From a virus: 64,000 nt of DNA. The notes under the pieces were generated by a model, which was not told the DNA's origin, ran no database searches, and saw only the letters and a list, made by a program, of their open reading frames with translations. Shown here piece by piece: positions 4,875 to 64,000 of this stretch; the first letter of the stretch is position 1, and each line of letters opens with the position of its first letter. Position numbers and translations under genes: made by a program. The stretch is from IMG/VR virus record IMGVR_UViG_3300045988_043972, positions 1-64,000 of that record. The stretch is one strand, 5' to 3'.

Positions 4875-5480
4875 TTAATATCTAATATAACGTACAGAAC
4901 GACCGCGTTTGAGTTCATCTTCGTAAGGAAACATCTTTTCCTTCTCATAGTCTCTCTCATCGTATTCTCTGTCATATTCTCTACGTCTACCATATGAAGA
5001 TCTCCCCATTCTTCCACCTCTACGGTAAGTTCCATAGGGTTCGTCATCGTCATCATCTTCATCTTCATATTTGCTGTAGTTTCTATCGAAGTATTCTTCT
5101 TCTGCATCTCTCAGCTTATCGCACATTACATAAATATAATAGTACCACATTTTACCTTCATCAATGTCTTTGTCACATATCCAGGCTTTAGCTAACTCTA
5201 CGAAATACTTAGAGTTATTAGAACCTGTCATGTTAACAATTACTTTGTAGTAATCTGAGTAAACCATATTCAATGCAACATACCAATCATACTTATTGAA
5301 CTTGCTATCAAAGCGAATTCCGTATTGATTTGCAAGAGCAGAAGTTTCTTCTACAGACCAATGTTGGCCTCTAGATCCGTCTTCGTTTTCCATCTTACTT
5401 ACAGCTTTACGTGCATGTTCTTCATCAAAGTGAGGACCATGTTTAGCTTCATAAGCTTTTGTACGGATTATTCTATGCAT
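4875..5480 (-). CDS. Hypothetical protein with acidic then Arg/Tyr-rich tail, 201 aa
   Basis: Intact track ORF with no TAG. Tail reads EDEDDDDDEPYGTYRRGGRMGRSSYGRRREYDREYDERDYEKE. Confidence 0.7.
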   Translation of the reverse strand: MHRIIRTKAYEAKHGPHFDEEHARKAVSKMENEDGSRGQHWSVEETSALANQYGIRFDSKFNKYDWYVALNMVYSDYYKVIVNMTGSNNSKYFVELAKAWICDKDIDEGKMWYYYIYVMCDKLRDAEEEYFDRNYSKYEDEDDDDDEPYGTYRRGGRMGRSSYGRRREYDREYDERDYEKEKMFPYEDELKRGRSVRYIRY

Positions 5481-5510
5481 ATTATTATTGATTAATATTA
5501 TAGATTGATT

Positions 5511-6149
5511 TTATTTACTAATCTCTATTATTCTAGTATCTGTTACTTTGATAAGTTTGTTAGAGTTGTTAATCGTATATTTTCTGTGAATATCTTTTTT
5601 AAAATCAAAGTGGAAGAATCTGGCTAGCCACGTCTTATACTTATTACGATATTCTTTCTTTTCTTCTACAAACAGCGTTTGCTAGTTTTTTAAATCTAAT
5701 GTGGCTGTTAAGATTGAGTCTTTTCTACTTACTATGATAGTTGTTAAATCATTTAACTTTAATTCCTAAGTAAAGTCAACCTCTTTGGTTTTAATTACTG
5801 TTTTGACGGAATCTTTAACTTCGGTATTGATTACCTGTGCCTATACCAGATTCTTGTCTTTGATTTTTAATTTCTTTTTAGTATCGTTCAACTATTGTAC
5901 TATACTATCTCTACTAGTATTAAGATCAGATATAGTTAGTTGTAACGTTCGATTTTCTTTTCTACTTGAATCTAATAACGATTCATAATATTCACTATTA
6001 TTGGATAGTCTAGCTATTTCCTTGTCCTTCTTTTGTAGCTGCTTGTACATAAAAAAAGCACTTACCGACAGTATACATATGAAACCTATGGTAAGTGCTC
6101 TGAAATGTGTTGCAAGCCAGTTAACTACTGATATTATTGCTGTTATCAT
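5511..6149 (-). CDS. N-terminal TM plus coiled-coil protein, possible spanin-like lysis component (212 aa, 4 TAG)
   Basis: Track ORF 5892..6149 continues through TAG codons to TAA 5513-5511. A hydrophobic N-terminus is followed by a K/E/L-rich region. Confidence 0.5.
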
Positions 6150-6651
6150 TGTTATTTGGTTTAAAATCTTTTATATCTAAATCTACTCCTAGATACTTTT
6201 CACCTTTAGCTTTGATAACTTTGCCTAGTACTTTTTCTAATACTTTACATATTTTGCAATCCGGATGTAAGTCCTTCATTGATTCTAGCCAGGATATGAA
6301 TTCAGTTCCACATATCATACCAGATACAAACTCTACGGCATGTAAGTTCAATGAGGTAACTATATGAGTATCTATAACGTATGCTCCTACTATCAACAAT
6401 GTAGCTTCAAATACTTTATTAATAGTTTTCCATAACTTATAAGACTCGATATGTTTGTGTCCGTATTTCCTTGATACTTTGTAACCTAATATGACATCTA
6501 TCAGTATAAAACTAGTTGCCGCAATTATAGCTACCTAAACTGGTGCTAAGAAAGATGTTATTCCAGCAAAGCAACTGCTGGCGAATCTCCCTGCGCTACT
6601 GAATATACTTTTGAACAAAGTCATTATTGAATCTCCTATATCGTGAATCAT
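6121..6651 (-). CDS. Holin-like multi-TM protein (176 aa, 1 TAG)
   Basis: Track ORF 6121..6399 extends upstream across one TAG to ATG 6651 (alternative 6624). Several hydrophobic segments. Resemblance to phage holin families is from memory only. Confidence 0.5.
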
Positions 6652-6671
6652 AGCAAGTATTTTGAGAAAGT

Positions 6672-6701
6672 AAAAAACCCTGAGAGATTGCTCTGACAGG
6701 G
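6672..6701 (-). terminator. Rho-independent terminator after the RT gene
   Basis: Minus strand has CCCTGTCAGAG..CTCTCAGGG followed by TTTTTT. Confidence 0.6.
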
Positions 6702-6746
6702 ATGATATTTTATCTGAGATATACCTTAAAAACGTATGTTATTGCG

Positions 6747-7772
6747 TTAGGTTTTCTTCTTCTTACTTTTTGATATGTATCGCAATAGCTCTTTATGTTT
6801 AGTCATTTTACTAAATAAATTACGACCATTACAGTACTTAATCCAACCTATATAACTACATATTTTCTATTGATAAGTACTCTTGTCTAGGTTATCTTTT
6901 TTGTTCAATTTACTTACTCTTTTACAGAAATTCTTCTTAATATGTTTTCTTAATAGAGTGTGAGTATGAAATATCTTATACCCTACAAAATCTATTCCTC
7001 TATCGTCAACTTTAAATATTTGCCAGTTGTCTTTAAAGTTAATATTAAGTCTTTCTTCTAAGTACTACTTCATATCCTTAAATAACTATCTTAAATAGTC
7101 TTTGTCTCCATGAAGTATTACAATATCATCTGCGTATCTGAAATAGTATTTTATATGTTTTTCTTCTTTGATCCAGTGATCTAGATATGTTAAATATAGA
7201 TTAGCAAAGAATTGTGATAAGTAATTACCAATTGGTACTCCCTATGCAGAATCTATTATTTCATCTAATATAATTAATAATTTCTTATCTTTTACTTTTC
7301 TTCTTATTAGCTATTTTAATATATCATGATCTATTGAAGGATAAAATTTTCTGACATCTAACTTAAGACAGTATTTTGTATTGGCTTCATCTTTCAGTGC
7401 GAACTTAACATCTTTCAGAGCTTTATGTATACCACGATTTTTTATACAACTATAAGTTCCTTTAATGAAGGATGATACCCAAATAGGTTCCATAATATTC
7501 ATAATAGCATGATGTACTATTCTATCTGGATAGTATGGAAGCTTGAATATTTCTCTTTCTTTAGGTTCATATATCTTGAATATATAATATTCAGAAGTCT
7601 TATATTCACCATCTATTAATTTCTTCTATAGATCTAAAAGTAATTTTTCTCTATTCTTATCAAAATTAATTATTTCAGGTCTATGTTGTTTTTGTCTTCT
7701 AGCTCTTTTATCCGCTAGATATAAATTGTCTAAAGTTACTATTTTGTCAAATAAATTATTATATCTTTTCAT
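6747..7772 (-). CDS. DGR-type reverse transcriptase (341 aa, 6 in-frame TAG)
   Basis: Translation gives ..YEPKEREIFKLPYYPDRIVHHA.., SCIKNRGIHKA, LDVRKFYPSIDH, GVPIGNYLSQFFANLYL, YFRYADDIVIL, GIDFVGY. It lies immediately downstream of the TR. Confidence 0.9.
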
Positions 7773-7890
7773 CTGTAATCCATTACCGAGTTTTCACGAA
7801 AAAAGTTACTAACACAGTTAATTAGTATGTTATCTTTTACCAAGGGGTAAGGTCTCCCTCTACAGTCTCTTAATTTCTTTATTTGTTTAA

Positions 7891-44524: not shown

Positions 44525-45309
44525 CTAACAATAAGAGCCGACTTCGAGAAATCTCAGAGCCGGCTGTCTAAACTTATTGCTGTTTTTTATCTATTTATTG
44601 AAGTCTACCATCTTGTGAATTACTTAATCTGTATCTTTTAGGATATCTTTTATATAGAGTATCTTCTTTATATATAATATAATGTATAGTTCCTTTACTG
44701 GATATATTATATTTATTCATTAATTGAGTATATGTAAAACCAGATTCTCTATCTTTTCTTATATTTTCTACTATATCTGCAGAGTATTTTCTACGTATTT
44801 GACCACAATTAATAGATATCAGTTCTTTTGGAATATCGTGTTTATTGTCTTTAATAGTTCCTATTCCTATATTATCGTAAGAATTATCATATCTATCTCC
44901 ATTCAAGTGTCTTACTACTATTCCATCTTCATAAATTTTATCACCAAACTTTTGATATGCTTGTAACCTGTGAATCATACAATGTACCTTCTTATTTTCT
45001 CTTCTAGGTCCTATTCTTATATCGAAATTGTAGTAATCTCTCTTACGATCTTTTATCCTACCTTTTACTTGTACTCCATTTCTGTTTAAAAGAATTCCAT
45101 CTTTTGTGACAGTGTAACCCTTAATAAGGGCTAATTCTTCTGGTTTTATCATACTTCTTTAATTTTTAATTGGTCGGCGTAGTAGGAGTCAAACCCACCC
45201 GGTCGGCTTCAGAGGCCACACGGTTTTAGAGACCGTCCATGCAATCGTACATCATACGCCGAAATGTGCCGGGGAATACTTATTGTCCATCCCCGTTGGA
45301 CGTCTTGTA
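44525..45309 (-). mobile_element. Probable group I-type intron carrying an HNH homing-endonuclease ORF (boundaries approximate)
   Basis: G+C-rich structured segments flank the HNH ORF. Examples: CGGCGTA..TACGCCG long-range pair and ACGGT-CTCTAAA-ACCGT upstream; CAATAAG..CTTATTG enclosing a 12-bp hairpin downstream. The insert ends in G just before TACCCAGAAGG. Confidence 0.5.
44595..45152 (-). CDS. HNH homing endonuclease, 185 aa
   Basis: ..VHCMIHRLQAYQKFG..VVRHLNGDRYDNSYDNIGIGTIKDNKHD.. is an HNH_3-like pattern, followed by a C-terminal helix-turn-helix-like region. No TAG. Confidence 0.8.
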   Translation of the reverse strand: MIKPEELALIKGYTVTKDGILLNRNGVQVKGRIKDRKRDYYNFDIRIGPRRENKKVHCMIHRLQAYQKFGDKIYEDGIVVRHLNGDRYDNSYDNIGIGTIKDNKHDIPKELISINCGQIRRKYSADIVENIRKDRESGFTYTQLMNKYNISSKGTIHYIIYKEDTLYKRYPKRYRLSNSQDGRLQ

Positions 45310-51880: not shown

Positions 51881-52557
51881 CAACTAATATAATTTGATAA
51901 TAAGTTTTAGGTGTAAAATGCAAGAGATTTTCTGAAAAATTAAACTAACAATTACACGGTCTGTGAAGATAGTGTAATTTCACATGTATTATTACTTTAA
52001 TGCAACCAATGAGGGCCGTGACAAGTCGGTGGACAATGCAGAGTCAAAGTAATTAATTATTATTTATCCTTAATTTATATGCACAATAAATTATTGATAT
52101 TTAATAGTTAAATAATCCACGTGGTAGAGACATAGTTAGGTTCGCTATGTGTGCAACTCTTAGTAGTAACTAATCCAAGCAAGTAAGGAGAATAACCTCA
52201 ACCAAGAGAAAGTGTGAAATGGTGCTTGACAGTCTGATACTAACTGAACAATAAGTATCATTTAAAGTAAGAGAATAGCATAGTTATTGCTGCGCATAAC
52301 TGCAAATTATGAGAGCGAATATAATGCGCTTACTTTATTCTTGATTAAATTATAATAATATAATACCTCTCACGTAACCTCCGACTACTACATGTAAAAT
52401 CCGTGCTAATAAGGTATTGTAGTAGTCTTCTCTATCAATAAATACAACCTCATCGTGGTGATAGAGTCTAGTAACATGTTAAAAACAAAACCTTCCTAGT
52501 TTGCATGTGAAGCTAATGTATTTAAATTATTTAACAGTATTAACAAATTAAATATTA
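51881..52557 (+). ncRNA. ORF-free structured block A (candidate large ncRNA; strand inferred from context)
   Basis: No track ORF on either strand. Helices: GACTACTACA/TGTAGTAGTC (52383-92/52418-27), CTCTATCA/TGATAGAG (52430-37/52459-66), AAAGTAAG/CTTACTTT (52264-71/52329-36). Confidence 0.4.
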
Positions 52558-53618: not shown

Positions 53619-54101
53619 AGAGTAATAATTAACAACAATTTATTACAGTTTTTTGAAGCATTTTGCATAATAGAAATGGTTTAAAAATTTCGACTTAATA
53701 ACTAGTCAGTTCGTGAGAATAGACTAGTCTTCAGAAGATGACAAGCCTGTGGGGCGTAAATAGATATGTCTTGTCAAAAGAATTAGGCCTACATAATTCA
53801 ATTGAGCCCAAGGTGTAGGAACATATCTATGATCGTGCGGACGTTAAAATCAGGTGAGTTCTAAGATTTAGTTTGACAGCTATTTCTGTATGTACTCTGG
53901 AGTAATCCTAAAACATATGAGGGTTTAAATTAACATAGTAATATGTGTGAAGGTGATTTCTTTAATAACAGATGTACAATAGAGCGCTATTGTTTTATAG
54001 TATTAGTCGCGAACCCGTAGCACTGCGGTAAATTATTCTGTATATAGTGCTGTATACAGACGTCATCAATTTTACTAACAATTAAAACTTAAGCTTATGT
54101 A
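53619..54101 (+). ncRNA. ORF-free structured block B (candidate ncRNA)
   Basis: No track ORF. Helices: ACTAGTC/GACTAGT (53701-07/53722-28); ATAGATATGT/ACATATCTAT (53760-69/53821-30) enclosing CCTACA/TGTAGG; ACAATAG-agcg-CTATTGT near 53976-93. Confidence 0.4.
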
Positions 54102-55464: not shown

Positions 55465-55501
55465 TTAAATTGTTAGTATGGTGGATTCCAATCAACCCGA
55501 A

Positions 55502-55647
55502 AGAACTGTAAATATACCAAAACCCTAATACATATTATTATGTAATGGCTATTCAACGGCAATCTGTAAATCTACAGATAAAGGGAGAGAAGGATAGGGG
55601 TTATCTGTAGAATAAGAGATAGGAATATACAGAACAGTTCTTTTTTT
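55502..55647 (+). ncRNA. Small structured RNA or terminator-capped element
   Basis: AGAACTGT/ACAGTTCT (55502-09/55634-41) closes the element and is followed by T7. An inner 11-bp hairpin TCTACAGATAA/TTATCTGTAGA (55571-81/55601-11) has a purine-rich loop. Confidence 0.4.
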
Positions 55648-56448: not shown

Positions 56449-56820
56449 TTCTCCGCGCATAGTCCAGGTATAGTGTTTTAGCAGTAGAAAATACTGACTA
56501 TATAACCTAACTAGAGAAAGTAGCTAATAGGTGGTGATGACATTTTATGTGCTAAGTACCAGAAGATGCAGCTCATGCGTGAATTAACACGCATACAACA
56601 AGTGTAAGGCGTAGAAATACGACCGATGCCAGAGTAGGACAATATGACAACGTGCCACTGATCATGTGCCTAAGATCGTGAGGATGTATTAATAAATTGC
56701 GCAATATATAAATACAGATTCTATACTCAATGAGTATATTATGCAATAGCATTCTTATGATATCAAATCGGCATATTGGAATAGTGCGATGCTAGACATC
56801 ATGCCGTATAGAGGCTGAAA
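56449..56820 (+). ncRNA. ORF-free structured block C, 5' part
   Basis: No credible ORF, and it contains short inverted repeats. Shares the 11-mer CCAGAGTAGGA with block D (near 63124). Confidence 0.35.
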
Positions 56821-57199
56821 GGTATTCTATACTTCCAAGACAAGTTATCAAGGCATTAGAAAATAATTTAAAAAAGACCAAAGACTATGTAGGTTTGGTC
56901 GCCTACATAGTCACAATTGACTGTTAGGTCTATTTAAGCCCGAGCAAGACGAGCTTTCGCAGGCTCCACCTCCACTAATAAAGAAATATTAAAAAGGGGG
57001 TGTATATGTATTGATTGGCGGAAACTAAGTAGAATAGGTCAATAAGCAGATAACTGGCAATACAAGTTATGTAACAGACTATACACGTTTAGTAGCGTAA
57101 GATAGTCTAACGGCTAAGCTAATGTCGTAGAAAGCTGGAGGTATATCAGGCTAGATCAGACGTAAGGGCTGTTGGAGGGTTCGATTCCCTCTAATACCA
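56821..57199 (+). ncRNA. About 380-nt RNA whose ends form a tRNA-like acceptor/T-arm domain (tmRNA-like topology, not a canonical tRNA or tmRNA)
   Basis: T-arm GAGGG-TTCGATT-CCCTC (57175-91). TAATACC (57192-98) pairs with GGTATTC (56821-27), 6 of 7. TATACTTCCA (56828-37) pairs with TGGAGGTATA (57136-45), 10 bp including one G-U. Confidence 0.5.
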
Positions 57200-58648: not shown

Positions 58649-59224
58649 ATGCCCGTAATTATGACAGATTTAGAAAAGCAACAGATTTTCGAACTGATCA
58701 AACAGGCAAAAGAAGGCAAACAATCTGCCTTCACAAAGCTTTATAATCGTTTTAGTAAGATTATTTATAATACAATTTATTATATTGTAAATAATAAAGA
58801 TGTAGCAGATGATTTATTATCTGTTACTTTTACTAAAGCTTTTAGTAAGCTAGATAGCTATGTAAACAATATCTCATTTGAGATGTGGTTGAAAACTATT
58901 GCAATAAATACTAGTATTGATTATATTCGACATACTAAAAAGGAAAAAGCGAACTATTGGATTGACGACGATGCCAACTCTCTACAGTTGAGTAACCAGG
59001 CCAGTTACTCACCTGAAGAAGATTTTATCTTCGCAGAGAAAAGTGATGCTCTAGATAATGCCTTGTCGCGGCTTCGTTGGAAGTATAAGAATATAATTGA
59101 ACTACGCTCTATACAAAATCTGTCTTACAAACAGATATCAGAGCAACTTGGACTCACAGAGTCTCAAGTAAAATCACGCCTTAACAAGGCAAGAGAAAAA
59201 TTAAAAGAATTATTAACAGATTAA
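58649..59224 (+). CDS. ECF-type sigma-70 family RNA polymerase sigma factor, 191 aa
   Basis: Region-2-like ..DLLSVTFTKAFSKLDSY..SFEMWLKTIAINTSIDYIRH. Region-4-like ..LRWKYKNIIELRSIQNLSYKQISEQLGLTESQVKSRLNKAREKLKELL. Confidence 0.85.
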   Translation: MPVIMTDLEKQQIFELIKQAKEGKQSAFTKLYNRFSKIIYNTIYYIVNNKDVADDLLSVTFTKAFSKLDSYVNNISFEMWLKTIAINTSIDYIRHTKKEKANYWIDDDANSLQLSNQASYSPEEDFIFAEKSDALDNALSRLRWKYKNIIELRSIQNLSYKQISEQLGLTESQVKSRLNKAREKLKELLTD

Positions 59225-59664: not shown

Positions 59665-61143
59665 ATGGGAAATAAAAATAAAGCAGCTAAAGGAGCTGCA
59701 AGTACTGCAGCAAAACCTGCAGAAACAGCTAAAGCAGAAAACACTGCTAAAGTAACTAAAACAGAGAAGGAGAATGCTAATGCTCAGCAAGTAAAAGAGG
59801 AGAAAGTACAAACTCAGGCTAAAACAGAGAAACAGTCCACCCAAAAAGAGACTGCTAAGCCTAAGAAAGATAAGACTCCTACAGTTATTGCTGAAGAAGT
59901 ATCTCCAGAGGAAGCAGTAAAAACACTTGCTAAATCTATCGGCGCTCCTTCCGGTTCCTATGTAAGTTCCACAGATGCTAAAGCTATGCTTTCATTTGTT
60001 GGTCATCAACGTTTCACTAATAATGAAGAGTTGAAGAAGAACTTCCCGGAACAATACAACGCTATTAATCAAGCGATTAATGCAGTATGGTTCCTTGGAA
60101 TGCTTGGAGTACAACAGGAATTGGCTGGAATGCAAGCTGATGGTAAGCTTCAGTTAATTGTAGCACCAGAGCAAGTTATGCCGTTACAAGAAATGGCAGA
60201 AATGTTTGGTGTTAAATTAGCATCTCCAAAAGCTCTTCCTGGAGCAACTGACGGACAATTAGCAATTCCGTTCAGTGCTCAAGAAACAATAGTTCCTGAA
60301 GAACTAAAGGATTCAAAGTTGACAAAACTTGAAGTCCCGGAAACTGATATTGAAAAAGTAGGGTCAGATCATGAAAAGATCTGCAATGCTTTGGAATATC
60401 TGTTACGTAAGGATCGTAACATTGTAATTAGTTTAATTGACACCATAGAATGGTATCGTAAACTTTGTATCAATAACGCTACTTCTACTGATGAAAAGTT
60501 GAAGCTTGACAATCGTCAAATTGACGAATGGATCAATGAGATTTTCCATCTTGTACCTGTAGCAGGTCTAATGAAAGGAATTGGACGTGCAGTATATCTG
60601 TATACTAAGAAGGAGGGTTCGCCGGTAAGTGCTCATTGCATAGTTCACGGTGCTGTGCCTTCAGTTACAGAGGATGAAATAGTACGTATTGTTCGTACAT
60701 TCATTCAGGAAAATTTCCGATACAATCTTGAAGACAAGATTGATGTTAATGGTAATGTTATCAAAACCGAAAAGATTGAAAATCCGGTAGATGACAAAGC
60801 CATTCAAGCAACAATGGGAGTAATTGGTGTAGATTATGTTGATAAATTGATGCATGACTATACTTGTTCTGTTCCTGAAAATGCAACAGACGAACAGTTA
60901 GTAGAAATCAAAATGGCTCGAGACGGAGCTAGAAAGATTATTTCTCTAATTCGTGCAAATTACTATCCCGGAAAGATTCCTCCTACAAACGAACAGCTTC
61001 GATTTGCAATTGGTAAAATTATCAACGCTTATCGTTCGCCAATGGATCGAATTGCCGAATTTGAAGGCCCACTTCCTGTACTTGTAGGTGAATATCCAGA
61101 AACCAAGAAAGAAGAGGCTACAGCTGAAGAAAAAAAAAGCTAA
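59665..61143 (+). CDS. 492-aa protein with Lys/Ala/Glu-rich low-complexity N-terminus
   Basis: Track ORF. The first ~70 residues, e.g. AAKGAASTAAKPAETAKAENTAKVTKTEKE.., are histone-H1-like in composition. Confidence 0.7.
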   Translation: MGNKNKAAKGAASTAAKPAETAKAENTAKVTKTEKENANAQQVKEEKVQTQAKTEKQSTQKETAKPKKDKTPTVIAEEVSPEEAVKTLAKSIGAPSGSYVSSTDAKAMLSFVGHQRFTNNEELKKNFPEQYNAINQAINAVWFLGMLGVQQELAGMQADGKLQLIVAPEQVMPLQEMAEMFGVKLASPKALPGATDGQLAIPFSAQETIVPEELKDSKLTKLEVPETDIEKVGSDHEKICNALEYLLRKDRNIVISLIDTIEWYRKLCINNATSTDEKLKLDNRQIDEWINEIFHLVPVAGLMKGIGRAVYLYTKKEGSPVSAHCIVHGAVPSVTEDEIVRIVRTFIQENFRYNLEDKIDVNGNVIKTEKIENPVDDKAIQATMGVIGVDYVDKLMHDYTCSVPENATDEQLVEIKMARDGARKIISLIRANYYPGKIPPTNEQLRFAIGKIINAYRSPMDRIAEFEGPLPVLVGEYPETKKEEATAEEKKS

Positions 61144-61210
61144 GCCGGTTCCATAATTGGTGGAGTATTGTATATAAGTTTAAGAGACTGTTCACTAATT
61201 CGTAATCAAT

Positions 61211-61612
61211 ATGAATAGTAGAATCTTATCAGCTGTAGTTTTGTTTACGGCTAGCGTATTTGTTGGCTGGAACTTAATCAGTACAGTTGAACCCGTGCAG
61301 GCACAACCGCCTGTAGTACCTTCATATTTAGAGTTGATGTCTATGATGCACTCTAATAAGGAAGCAAAGTCTGTGAGTAAGGTAGATACTATAGAAGTAT
61401 CTTATGATGTTAATACTCAGGAAGTATCCGTAAAAGGAACAGCAGACGCCATTGTGAATGTAACAACCACTGGTGAATTAAAACCAGTAGTTAAGTGGAG
61501 AACTAAAGTAAAAGAAGTAAATACAGGATTTCCAAAGGTACGTAGTATAGCTAACCTACCAGAGGATGTAAAACCACTTTCTCCTTTTACTAAAGAATCT
61601 CAAAATGAGTAA
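61211..61612 (+). CDS. Secreted or membrane-anchored protein, 133 aa
   Basis: Track ORF with an N-terminal hydrophobic segment ILSAVVLFTASVFVGWNLI. Confidence 0.6.
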   Translation: MNSRILSAVVLFTASVFVGWNLISTVEPVQAQPPVVPSYLELMSMMHSNKEAKSVSKVDTIEVSYDVNTQEVSVKGTADAIVNVTTTGELKPVVKWRTKVKEVNTGFPKVRSIANLPEDVKPLSPFTKESQNE

Positions 61613-62030
61613 GAAGAATCTTATTATGCTTAATAGTATGATACGACTATCACGTATCATACGAAATAGCAAAGATGCTAGGCGTAATTTAGATTTGATA
61701 GTAGACCAAACTGGTTACTTTATAGTAGCTGGAGAGAGTTCTAATATGATACAAGTACAAGCAAAAGCTAGTATAAGTAACATCTTATTCGTAGAACAGT
61801 ACTTACGCTCGTCTGTAAGTAGTATATGTGTGCACTTGGATGGTTTTGATCCAGGATGTATGGATCCAATTGATTATATCAGTAGTAGTGATATAAAAAA
61901 TGGCATAGTTGATCTATGCAGGGGTAAGAAGGTGGTTGCAAACATCAACTTATCTTCTGGAGACATATTTCTTGTAAAACCAGAGTCAGAAATTGTAGGA
62001 GAAGATAAATCCTCAGCGGAAAAAAGTTAA
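61605..62030 (+). CDS. Hypothetical protein, 141 aa
   Basis: Track ORF overlapping the previous gene by 8 nt. Confidence 0.6.
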   Translation: MSKKNLIMLNSMIRLSRIIRNSKDARRNLDLIVDQTGYFIVAGESSNMIQVQAKASISNILFVEQYLRSSVSSICVHLDGFDPGCMDPIDYISSSDIKNGIVDLCRGKKVVANINLSSGDIFLVKPESEIVGEDKSSAEKS

Positions 62031-64000
62031 TGATAATAGCCGCTATATAAATACTATAATTATATCATAGTTCGAGAGGAGTAAAACTATAGCGTAAATC
62101 ACTCCGGTAGAAGGCATTGCGGTATTTAAAATAAAATAACACGCGCTACGTCAGGGAGTTTGTGTCCATTTACACATAGCCCGAAAAAGACAGAATCCGA
62201 GAATATGTAAGCTGCAATCACAGTGAGATACACAAAAGGTAGGATAATAACTTATACTGGTGAAAAAGGTATAAGAAAGCAGGAGAGGGTGAATAACCTG
62301 CGCAATTAGCATGAGAACCGTTTGGTGATGTTAAAAGTGAAGAACCCGTAATATAGGAGCTACAAGAAGATACCCTAGTTACAAAGTAATTCAAATGGAA
62401 CGAAATCCATATATTCGTATGCATTAATCAAAATGTGATTCAAAAAGGAATATAAACACGATGCTGAAACAAGAGCAAAGGGCTCTTGGATAATCCCTTG
62501 GAAAAGGATTATCGAATAATATTATGGCTGACTAACGCAACAAGCGGGCTCCAACCTCGCTTTATACAAAAGCGCAACTATGCGTCCTGACTGGAAAAAT
62601 AGGCTAACTCTAGTGTTTTTATGATAATTGGTTCATAATATAAAGGGAGTAATTACTGATACTAATGTAAGGATAACCGTGTTATGGTACATACTTATAC
62701 AAAGTAAAGATATGAAGGCTGGACATGCAATGATCCTAAGTAGCTATGTTAAATTATAGTGAAAATAGACTGATTACCAGGGAGCAGGAGCCAATCCTGT
62801 GCGCTACCGTAACTAGCGTGCCGCAAAAGAATTTACGTATAAGGGATGAGGTATATGAGATTGATACCGTCTTTCAAGTCTAAGGTGACTCACGTGCTTA
62901 TTCGTTCGTGTGAGTATAATTGAATGAGGAATGAATAGACCAAGAGTGTCTAAGCGGTTTGAGGGCGCAATAACCCTGATTCTAGTTGTCACGTACCTTT
63001 AGCAAGTACGATTATGACATAAAATAATACTAAGGAGAAGCTTTGGAACTCCTTCTAAAAAACAGCAGAGCTTATACCTTTCAAGATATGTAAAAGGTGC
63101 ATTTACTAGATTATCACACTCATTCCAGAGTAGGAGATATTAGTAGTGGTTAAAATAATAAATTAATAAGTAAGAGCCAAGCTGCTCCAGCTTAGAACCC
63201 TGGAACCAGAGAGGTAGGACTGTAACAGATGATGTTACTTTACTGCATCTGAAAGTTAATGCCGAATAGAACCGGCCTAGTTAAATCTGTTCTAAGAGAA
63301 TAAATTAATATTATTAATCAGACTGCATAGTGTAGGAAGGCTATGAGTCACATAGAAGTTGGGGAAGTCCAATGATAGTACAGAAGTAGCAAATTGTCAT
63401 TTGTAAGACAAACCGTATGGAGTATAAGTCACCCCCAGACTGCCAACCGTCATCGCTGACATTAGAAACTCCTAAAGTATATATTGCAAGTATATATGTA
63501 AAGAGAACGCTGATTCGTTAATAACCTGCCTCCTATCACCCTGTCTCGGTAGATTAAAGGGAGTAGTATATTTTGACTCAATAGTAATAACAATTGAGCA
63601 GCAAGGAAACGATGAGAGGTGGAAATCCTCGTGTTCGAGCAGTAATAAACAACAAATCCTATGCATGGTACAAGTGGGTCATGCTATTAATCCGGTGGAG
63701 CGCTGTAACAGTGAACGTTTTTAACACGGATGATATAGTCAATGAGCTTGTGAGTTGGTAACGTTAGATAAACGACCGTAATTCTATGAATTTCGATAAT
63801 CCGGAAATACCAGGTAGACTACCGTGTGAGTCGATGATCTGTGTTTCTTATATTGCATCTAATCGCGATATAAGATAACGGTGAGAGGTGCGTTAAGCAT
63901 CGAAAGAGTTGAATCTTAACCGTCGAAACGGGACGCTAAAACTATTATAATTATCAGAATTTAACAGAGAATTTATCAGAAGATATTTTCAAGTAAATTA
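62031..64000 (+). ncRNA. ORF-free structured block D, at least 1.97 kb and running to the window end (candidate giant ncRNA or ncRNA cluster)
   Basis: TAA, TAG and TGA are frequent in all plus frames. Only two short antisense track ORFs. Visibly higher G+C. Many hairpins, e.g. GATAATCC/GGATTATC (62489-96/62506-13), CGCTATA/TATAGCG (62041-47/62089-95), CTCAAT/ATTGAG (63576-81/63592-97). Confidence 0.45.

Follow-up and report, generated by a model that had tools for sequence, protein, structure and literature searches.

The first 64,000 nucleotides (nt) of the IMG/VR virus record IMGVR_UViG_3300045988_043972, analysed here as one window, end in a block (62031-64000) that belongs to a non-coding locus of approximately 2.1 kb encoding structured RNA. 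An earlier reading made from the letters alone (hereafter, the sequence-only reading) had proposed a giant structured RNA or a cluster of RNAs at this place, and that core is upheld by the conserved position and size of the block, by the lack of any coding signature and by compensatory changes in its helices. The locus and its structure are well supported; our best interpretation, to which we give a probability of roughly 0.6, is that the product is a plus-strand, trans-acting, multi-domain RNA, used whole or after processing. Across all 1970 bases the block in the window is 99.0% identical to positions 5331-7302 of the uncultured crAss-like phage cr60_1 (NC_055891; Crassvirales, Suoliviridae, Loutivirinae, Buchavirus hominis). 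The limits of the block were taken from locus L001 (8001-10142). The block runs on past the edge of the window, in cr60_1 by 172 nt up to the start codon of a gene for a 210-amino-acid (aa) protein, for a total of 2142 nt, and a small conserved gene flanks it on each side.

The absence of an open reading frame (ORF) between 62031 and the window edge, and the frequency of stop codons there, were confirmed and found to extend to all six frames. No ORF longer than 68 aa is present on either strand of 62031-64000; TAA, TAG and TGA each occur in all six frames (5-33 of each), and no stop reassignment opens a frame. Substitutions show no 3-base periodicity (variable-site fraction by phase 0.62/0.60/0.64), indels are mostly not multiples of three (965/477/307 gap lengths with remainders 1/2/0), and the longest stop-free stretches, of 60-131 codons, are unconserved. 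A protein-coding gene with a reassigned stop is excluded by the stops in six frames together with the lack of codon periodicity. Public annotation is systematically wrong at this locus, where spurious ORFs have been called. The minus-strand ORFs annotated in cr7_1 and Bohxovirus were rejected as spurious, since the cr7_1 ORF has in-frame stops and the two are just 31% identical over 67 aa; by analogy, similar minus-strand ORFs annotated in cr109_1 and cr113_1 are probably spurious as well. Records calling "hypothetical proteins" within the block include L002 (6510-6947), L003 (4438-4875), L336 (10921-11403), L338 (10848-11354) and L146 (8741-10749), and in Dulem virus 42 some 12 tiny ORFs are annotated there, which resemble spurious calls.

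The structure was derived with RNAalifold from 20 representatives, which gave 391 pairs, of which the 361 spanning at most 260 nt were kept. In these, 94.8% of cells were paired, as compared to 36-42% in slid controls, and 144 of the 361 pairs were compensatory, with changes on both sides, against 28-38 in the same controls. The covariation score was 0.308 versus 0.05-0.07 in controls, a value reached by none of 500 shuffles. Because the structure had been derived from the same alignment that was used to score it, it was cross-validated between clades. The structure obtained from nine Buchavirus-like sequences was 78.8% canonical in the other eleven (69% identical), compared with 38-42% when slid, and this test yielded 394 fully compensatory new pair cells against 99-169 in controls; in the reverse direction, from the eleven to the nine, 84.2% were canonical. 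The comparative analysis that the sequence-only reading had put forward as a check returned strong covariation, with canonical pairing between clades at 79-84% versus 36-43% in controls.

Further support was obtained from searches of other kinds. A covariance model of one part of the block (R1; core 1 in Table 1), built from Loutivirinae only, found a syntenic match in all ten distant genomes, with expectation values (E) of 1.9e-16 to 3.1e-05. In the cross-subfamily alignment of core 1, 11 of 12 pairs were compensatory and 92% of cells were paired as against 41-52% when slid, in an alignment that is fitted to the model and so leans toward the structure. A cross-subfamily MAFFT alignment (A2) was set aside, its registration being too poor for pair counts, and the covariance-model alignment was used instead. 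A stack search that assumed no structure recovered 33 local hairpins with at least two compensatory pairs, where the density of long-range hits would predict about 1.5. Taken together, the block holds at least 30 hairpins and several multi-branch domains in which pairing is maintained by compensatory substitutions.

Viral contigs were scanned for copies of the block with protein anchors and with DNA patterns. The 106 full-length copies (88 unique, 20 after 97% dereplication) range down to 64% identity with the version in the window, and in 27 loci measured the length of the block is 2056-2174 nt. The block evolves more slowly than the genes at its sides: in cr56_1 it retains 82% nucleotide identity, whereas the adjacent 492-aa protein is 41% and the downstream 210-aa protein 43% identical. 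Conservation is unbroken from the upstream stop codon to the next start codon, save for short variable islands, which are hairpins inserted, lost or replaced between lineages. Such mosaic cassettes were seen at columns 184-207, 407-482, 630-700, 2050-2100 and 2250-2460 of alignment A1 (approximately 62208, 62390, 62520, 63680-63730 and 63860-63930 in the window). Pairwise identities are not tree-like (L019, for example, shows 0.90 with L005 and 0.92 with L024), a pattern suggestive of recombination inside the block.

More distant loci were located by following a sigma-factor-like gene into other annotated genomes. The order of genes is shared and consists of the sigma-like gene, a small ORF (~120-140 aa, in most genomes), an ORF of 460-570 aa, one or two small ORFs, an ORF-free gap (lengths in Table 1) and two ORFs of ~170-210 aa. 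Besides Loutivirinae, the block was found in this way in Bearivirinae, Boorivirinae, Uncouvirinae and Oafivirinae; the sources of all these loci are the gut of humans, macaques, pigs and lemurs and the human airway. As Oafivirinae are now placed in Darmviridae, it spans two families, Suoliviridae and Darmviridae, the "delta" group of Yutin et al. An nhmmer profile of the Loutivirinae block detected collinear islands in nine of ten distant genomes, namely core 1 (~62160-62460), core 2 (~63300-63840) and, in part of the genomes, the last hairpin ahead of the next gene; the two cores lie ~1.0-1.4 kb apart across subfamilies, and the sequence between them has diverged beyond recognition. Homologues that were coding, or absent with no conservation, would have spoken against a structured RNA; instead, position and size are kept in every delta lineage examined.

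At least 120 metagenome contigs carry the block, many of them ~100 kb long and many labelled human gut. Over 200 loci were collected in all. Scans of bacterial genomes (GTDB) gave three matches only (L208, L209 and L210). Residence in bacteria was rejected, as the contigs concerned, assigned to Thauera sp. 2A1, a Clostridium metagenome-assembled genome (MAG) and a Sphaerochaeta MAG (100,100-bp contig), look like crAss-like phage contigs that were misbinned or entered as contaminants.

The block belongs to no known RNA family, in agreement with the sequence-only reading, which had matched it to none. A cmscan of 61500-64000 against the Rfam 15 covariance models with permissive filters gave no match at E <= 10, and no Rfam match lies inside the block in seven relatives (at gathering score) or in four distant ones (E <= 0.5); it is therefore not a member of the GOLLD, ROOL, OLE, intron, ribozyme, RAGATH, transfer RNA (tRNA) or transfer-messenger RNA (tmRNA) families. 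The HEARO and raiA models of Rfam 15 were likewise unmatched, ARAGORN and the Rfam tRNA and tmRNA models detected nothing in the block, and the Hatchet, twister, pistol, hammerhead and RAGATH models had no match in it, though there are matches at 52-57 kb of the window. A group I or II intron was rejected, since the ORFs on either side are two complete genes of their own in 16 annotated genomes, the upstream one with its own stop and the downstream one with its own start; moreover, RF00028 and RF00029 are unmatched, and the block has no homing-endonuclease or reverse-transcriptase ORF. Direct repeats in the block amount to two short two-copy matches of 18-19 nt, and this lack of repeats excludes a CRISPR array, a ToxI-like antitoxin and repeat decoys. 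The crAss-like genomics literature (PMC7886860, the review PMC10136315 and a 2026 preprint) does not mention the block, nor was any description found in the searchable literature on Crassvirales, Suoliviridae, RAGATH and structured RNA, subscription-only literature being outside the scope of that search.

Of the two strands, the plus strand is favoured as the functional one. RNAalifold energy was -467 for the plus strand and -430 for the minus strand, among helices called symmetrically on the two strands G-U is 2-3 times as frequent as A-C, and the G-U pair that closes the hairpin at 62211-62224 persists in 11 of 15 sequences sampled across subfamilies. The neighbouring genes of cr60_1 are all on the plus strand, the orientation proposed for the RNA.

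As regards strand, transcript architecture and function, we infer the following. The block would be transcribed rightward, on the plus strand, as part of or right after an early operon that would end with the sigma-factor-like gene and three small genes; the block lies just ahead of the replication genes. Its product would act as RNA and in trans, either as one ~2.1-kb multi-domain molecule or by way of a precursor that is cut into a fixed series of large modules. As in the ornate RNAs GOLLD, ROOL and OLE, the conserved loops and unpaired stretches may serve as contacts in tertiary folding, in self-assembly or with proteins of the phage or the host, and such contact sites could let the RNA act as a scaffold or as a decoy in the early-to-middle phase of infection.

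Several results weigh against this interpretation. When G-U and A-C are counted by column their difference is not significant (16 vs 8, p = 0.15; 17 vs 7, p = 0.06), and structures predicted for the minus strand cross-validate equally well (77.9% and 84.5%). The energy of single-sequence folding is ordinary on the plus strand (z = -0.44 and -0.83); the first half of the minus strand gave z = -3.33 on 20 shuffles only, and the z-scores are uninformative. Reproducible support is lacking for any helix that spans more than 260 nt: two structure-free searches gave long-range candidates of 4-6 bp that were inconsistent between the searches and at background density, and these were rejected as noise. 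This absence fits a string of modules at least as well as it fits one globular RNA. Nor do the neighbouring proteins offer a clue to function, as scanning them against PHROG and Pfam gave no match, an AlphaFold model of fair quality for the 492-aa neighbour gp08 had no significant structural match in the PDB, and the model of the 210-aa neighbour gp05 (predicted local distance difference test score 43) was too poor for a structure search.

How many molecules the block produces is the point on which alternatives come closest. One possible but doubtful scenario is a cluster of separate small structured RNAs, similar to the RAGATH and Hatchet elements that lie a few kb upstream, each transcribed from its own promoter or released from a read-through transcript and acting alone. 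Covariation support is indeed confined to local hairpins and to domains no larger than ~210 nt, single hairpins have been inserted, lost and swapped as cassettes between lineages, just two cores are recognisable across subfamilies, and several discrete small RNAs already exist in the same region of this phage. Independent units of this kind are harder to reconcile with a total length and core spacing that are kept despite unrecognisable intervening sequence, with a strictly collinear order of modules, and with conservation that leaves no neutral-looking spacers between the stop codon and the next start codon. Nor were conserved internal terminators or a repeated promoter motif found: sigma-70-type promoter-like sites are not enriched in the block, neither of the conserved motifs TATGNGATTGA and AAATACTATAATTAT recurs in the window more often than expected by chance, and the one terminator-like hairpin on the plus strand belongs to an insertion that is specific to cr60_1. 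The kept spacing of ~1.0-1.4 kb between the cores and the lack of a conserved internal terminator support a single unit. That the entire ~2.1 kb make up one structured RNA, folding or assembling into a large RNA or ribonucleoprotein particle with a new function in infection, is nevertheless a tentative proposition, to which we would give well under even odds; if true, this RNA would exceed in size every other non-ribosomal structured RNA known from bacteria or phages, at about three times the size of GOLLD.

Two further explanations dispense with a trans-acting RNA. The block lies exactly between early regulatory genes, with their sigma-factor-like gene, and the replication module, and a conserved hairpin followed by AAAAAGGA directly precedes the start codon of the next gene, an arrangement kept in Bearivirinae and Boorivirinae; it might accordingly be a very long leader or 3' untranslated region that controls the switch from early to replication genes through antitermination, attenuation, messenger RNA stability or translation. 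Known leaders and antiterminator RNAs measure tens to a few hundred nt, so that 2 kb holding over 30 conserved hairpins and numerous invariant loops goes far beyond the need, and the most conserved cores lie 0.3-1.9 kb away from the downstream start codon; we therefore regard such a cis-acting element as improbable. Least probable of all, in our estimate, is an element acting at the level of DNA, such as a replication origin or packaging site with hairpins in single-stranded or extruded DNA. The replication genes do adjoin the block, and its structure is equally supported on both strands; against this, iterons and other repeats are lacking in the block, cumulative GC skew rises steadily across it with no inflection, and there is no AT-rich unwinding region, the guanine-plus-cytosine (G+C) content being slightly above the genome average. 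Moreover, substitutions compatible with G-U exceed those with A-C, conserved loops next to covarying stems are typical of RNA, and we know of no origin with 2 kb of covarying hairpins.

The systems closest in kind are GOLLD (RF01998) and ROOL (RF03087), "ornate" RNAs of bacteria and phages that form RNA-only multimeric cages (PMC12286853; PMC5737381). Like them, the block is large, free of ORFs, strongly conserved and phage-carried, with many covarying helices and conserved unpaired nucleotides, and it shares with them a loose association with tRNAs, here 1.3-2.8 kb downstream, and a function that is unknown (PMC5737381, PMC12286853). It differs in size (~2.1 kb, compared with ~800 nt for GOLLD and ~580 nt for ROOL), in leaving their covariance models unmatched at E <= 10, in having no supported long-range closing helices, and in its confinement to one crAss-like group of Bacteroidota phages. 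The tRNA genes in question were seen in several relatives, at L001 12944-13001, L007 6422-6495, L047 4472-4545 and L146 12098-12170.

Structured RNAs of already known families are unusually abundant in the early plus-strand region of the window, which holds RAGATH-7 (52051-52260), a Hatchet ribozyme (53727-53855), RAGATH-9 (55488-55644) and RAGATH-20 (56576-56677), all above Rfam gathering thresholds. These elements (RF03159, RF03146, RF03048, RF02678) resemble the block in being structured and of unknown role, in their hairpin-rich, A-rich style and in sharing the same early region of this phage and its relatives; unlike it, each of them is a separate RNA of 100-210 nt that has a curated model, and the block has no detectable sequence similarity to them. 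Cr50_1 also carries a Hatchet ribozyme, together with RAGATH-22. A sub-threshold match to the permuted tmRNA (RF04321) lies at 56916-57100 on the plus strand (34.4 bits versus a gathering score of 47, E = 4.5e-5); the corresponding element of cr50_1 scores 60.3 bits, by which the RefSeq "tmRNA" features of these phages look real, two-piece and phage-borne. Self-splicing group I and II introns are common in delta and zeta crAss-like phages (PMC7886860; PMC12350094); they too are kilobase-scale structured RNAs in crAss-like genomes with stops in all frames, but they occur sporadically, whereas the block occupies one fixed site in every delta genome examined.

Delta-group crAss-like phages (Suoliviridae, Darmviridae) make up a major part of the human gut virome and are not known to have been cultured. 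Suoliviridae were still uncultured as of a 2023 review (PMC10136315). The block takes up ~2% of a compact 100-kb genome and, being under tighter constraint than the genes around it, must have an important role, yet it is explained by no RNA family, protein domain or searchable paper. As a candidate for a new class of very large functional RNA, it comes with more than 100 natural sequence variants ready for structure determination.

The elements of the block are listed in Table 1. The motif AAATACTATAATTAT at its 5' end may be an unstructured leader or a promoter-like element. In the 5' domain, the hairpin at 62151-62183 shows compensatory changes at 6 of 11 pairs. The pattern GAACGAAATC...TCAANNAGG...TAAACACGA of the hairpin series at 62395..62513 is shared with the Bearivirinae clade. 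As regards the two hairpins at 62543..62585, hairpins with a YCCAAA loop and covarying stems are visible by eye in Oafivirinae and Dulem virus 42. Within the best-supported domain, the helix 62690-62700/62837-62848 has 6 of 10 compensatory pairs and was recovered independently by the structure-free search (7 bp, 5 compensatory). The least conserved sequence of the block is found at 63076..63276. Toward the 3' end, the tip of the long hairpin 63669-63752 carries an insertion of ~50 nt in the version of the window, and some lineages have alternative cassettes (A1 columns 2050-2100 and 2250-2460).

Table 1. Features of the non-coding block in the window, and lengths of the syntenic gap in other lineages.
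Feature	Position or genome	Strand	Contents, length or evidence
Upstream flanking gene (141 aa; gp06 of cr60_1)	61605..62030	+	ORF list and cr60_1 RefSeq annotation; stop codon forms 5' edge of block
Non-coding block, part in window	62031..64000	+	First 1970 of ~2142 nt
Near-invariant AT-rich motif AAATACTATAATTAT	62049..62063	+	Invariant columns in alignment A1; just past stop codon, 2 nt before first helix
5' multi-helix domain	62066..62207	+	RNAalifold consensus and pair counts
5' domain helices	62066-62077 with 62196-62207	+	Outer helix; inner hairpins 62078-62105, 62107-62149, 62151-62183
Core 1	62192..62331	+	Found in every lineage examined; covariance model R1
Core 1 contents	62199-62245		GAGAAUAUGU 62199-62208; hairpin 62211-62224; CAAAAGGUAGGAU 62233-62245
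Core 1 contents, continued	62251-62321		UGAAAA-loop hairpin 62251-62275; hairpin 62279-62301; AUGAGAACCGU 62311-62321
Hairpin series	62395..62513	+	Helices 13-20, 2-5 compensatory pairs each
Hairpins in series	62395-62410; 62412-62452; 62470-62488; 62489-62513		ACGAAA loop in the first; inner hairpin 62422-62435 in the second; GATAATCC/GGATTATC in the last
Conserved single-stranded UAAACACGAUG	62453-62463	+
Two hairpins	62543-62561; 62572-62585	+	CUCCAAC loop in the first; helices 21-22, 3 and 2 compensatory pairs
Best-supported multi-branch domain	62666..62876	+	~210 nt; covariation pair counts and structure-free search
Outer helices of this domain	62666-62674 with 62869-62876; 62690-62700 with 62837-62848	+
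Inner hairpins of this domain	62676-62688; 62736-62768; 62784-62800; 62801-62819; 62850-62868	+
Four hairpins	62896..63053	+	62896-62940, 62956-62983, 62987-63019, 63033-63053 (AAGGAG/CTCCTT); helices 36-41
More variable hairpins	63076..63276	+	63076-63097, 63118-63131, 63182-63209, 63224-63241, 63261-63276; helices 43-47, 2-6 compensatory pairs each
Core 2	63360..63637	+	Recognisable across subfamilies; nhmmer Loutivirinae profile, collinear with core 1, 8 of 10 distant genomes
Core 2 contents	63360-63505		GGGGAAGUCCAAUG 63361-63374; helix 63360-63369 with 63438-63446; hairpins 63449-63460, 63469-63505
UGGAAAU-loop hairpin of core 2	63610-63637	+	Stem 63616-63619 with 63627-63630
GAGAACCG			Core sequence of block
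3' region	63669..63935	+	Helices 59-67
3' region contents	63669-63935		Hairpins 63669-63752, 63762-63774; domain 63775-63882 (inner 63809-63844, 63846-63875); hairpins 63887-63901, 63921-63935
Syntenic gap	Bearivirinae cr6_1		2080 nt
Syntenic gap	Boorivirinae cr10_1		2076-2456 nt
Syntenic gap	Boorivirinae cr50_1		2514 nt
Syntenic gap	Uncouvirinae cr114_1		1849-2053 nt
Syntenic gap	Uncouvirinae cr118_1		1920 nt
Syntenic gap	Oafivirinae cr130_1 (macaque)		2025 nt
Syntenic gap	Oafivirinae cr7_1		2171 nt
Syntenic gap	Oafivirinae cr273_1 (pig)		2223 nt
Syntenic gap	Oafivirinae Bohxovirus (human airway)		2189 nt
Syntenic gap	Dulem virus 42 (lemur)		2116 nt

The cues from which the sequence-only reading had started, namely G+C content, perfect inverted repeats and shared words, are not what the conclusion of a structured RNA rests on. 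The supposed excess of G+C over the surrounding coding DNA disappears against the immediate neighbours, as the block has 37.6%, the adjacent genes at 59665-62030 have 37.5% and the whole window 34.3%. Perfect inverted repeats, described as dense, are not above chance: 34, 8 and 2 were counted for k = 6, 7 and 8, compared with 22.8 +/- 5.9, 6.0 +/- 3.2 and 1.7 in shuffles and with 28, 6 and 1 in a coding control. Among the individual repeats that had been singled out, the 8-bp pair GATAATCC/GGATTATC (62489-62513) is a genuine covarying hairpin, and AAGGAG/CTCCTT (63033-63053) also forms a hairpin, but one with a single compensatory pair; CTCAAT/ATTGAG (63577-63598) covaries within Buchavirus and not beyond, and CGCTATA/TATAGCG is unsupported by the comparative data. 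The words said to be shared with other non-coding blocks do exist, CCAGAGTAGGA at 56629 (inside RAGATH-20) and 63125 and GTGTAGGAA at 53813 (inside the Hatchet ribozyme) and 63330, but the similarity they were taken to reflect is not above chance, since a comparison of the block with the rest of the window, the other non-coding blocks included, gave nothing better than a BLAST E of 0.36.

The early regulatory region of the window consists of plus-strand genes from ~50 kb on, with the sigma-factor-like gene at 58649-59224, and homologues of gp06 sit directly upstream of the block in Loutivirinae loci. The block had been placed at the end of the plus-strand module, which is wrong, as plus-strand replication genes, including that of the DNA polymerase, follow it in cr60_1. 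A description of these genomes in three modules has been published (PMC10136315). The minus-strand genes at 1-49800 are fragmented under the standard code, and reading TAG as sense lengthens the ORFs of 150 codons or more from a total of 10.9k aa to one of 18.2k aa. This gain, together with a 91-nt tRNA with anticodon CUA at 45171-45261 on the minus strand, the sole tRNA that ARAGORN found in the window, indicates that the late minus-strand genes are amber-recoded, as previously described for this phage group (PMC7886860). A match to the RT-17 RNA, a motif associated with reverse transcriptases, was also seen on the minus strand at 7766-7854 (40.8 bits, with a gathering score of 40.4).

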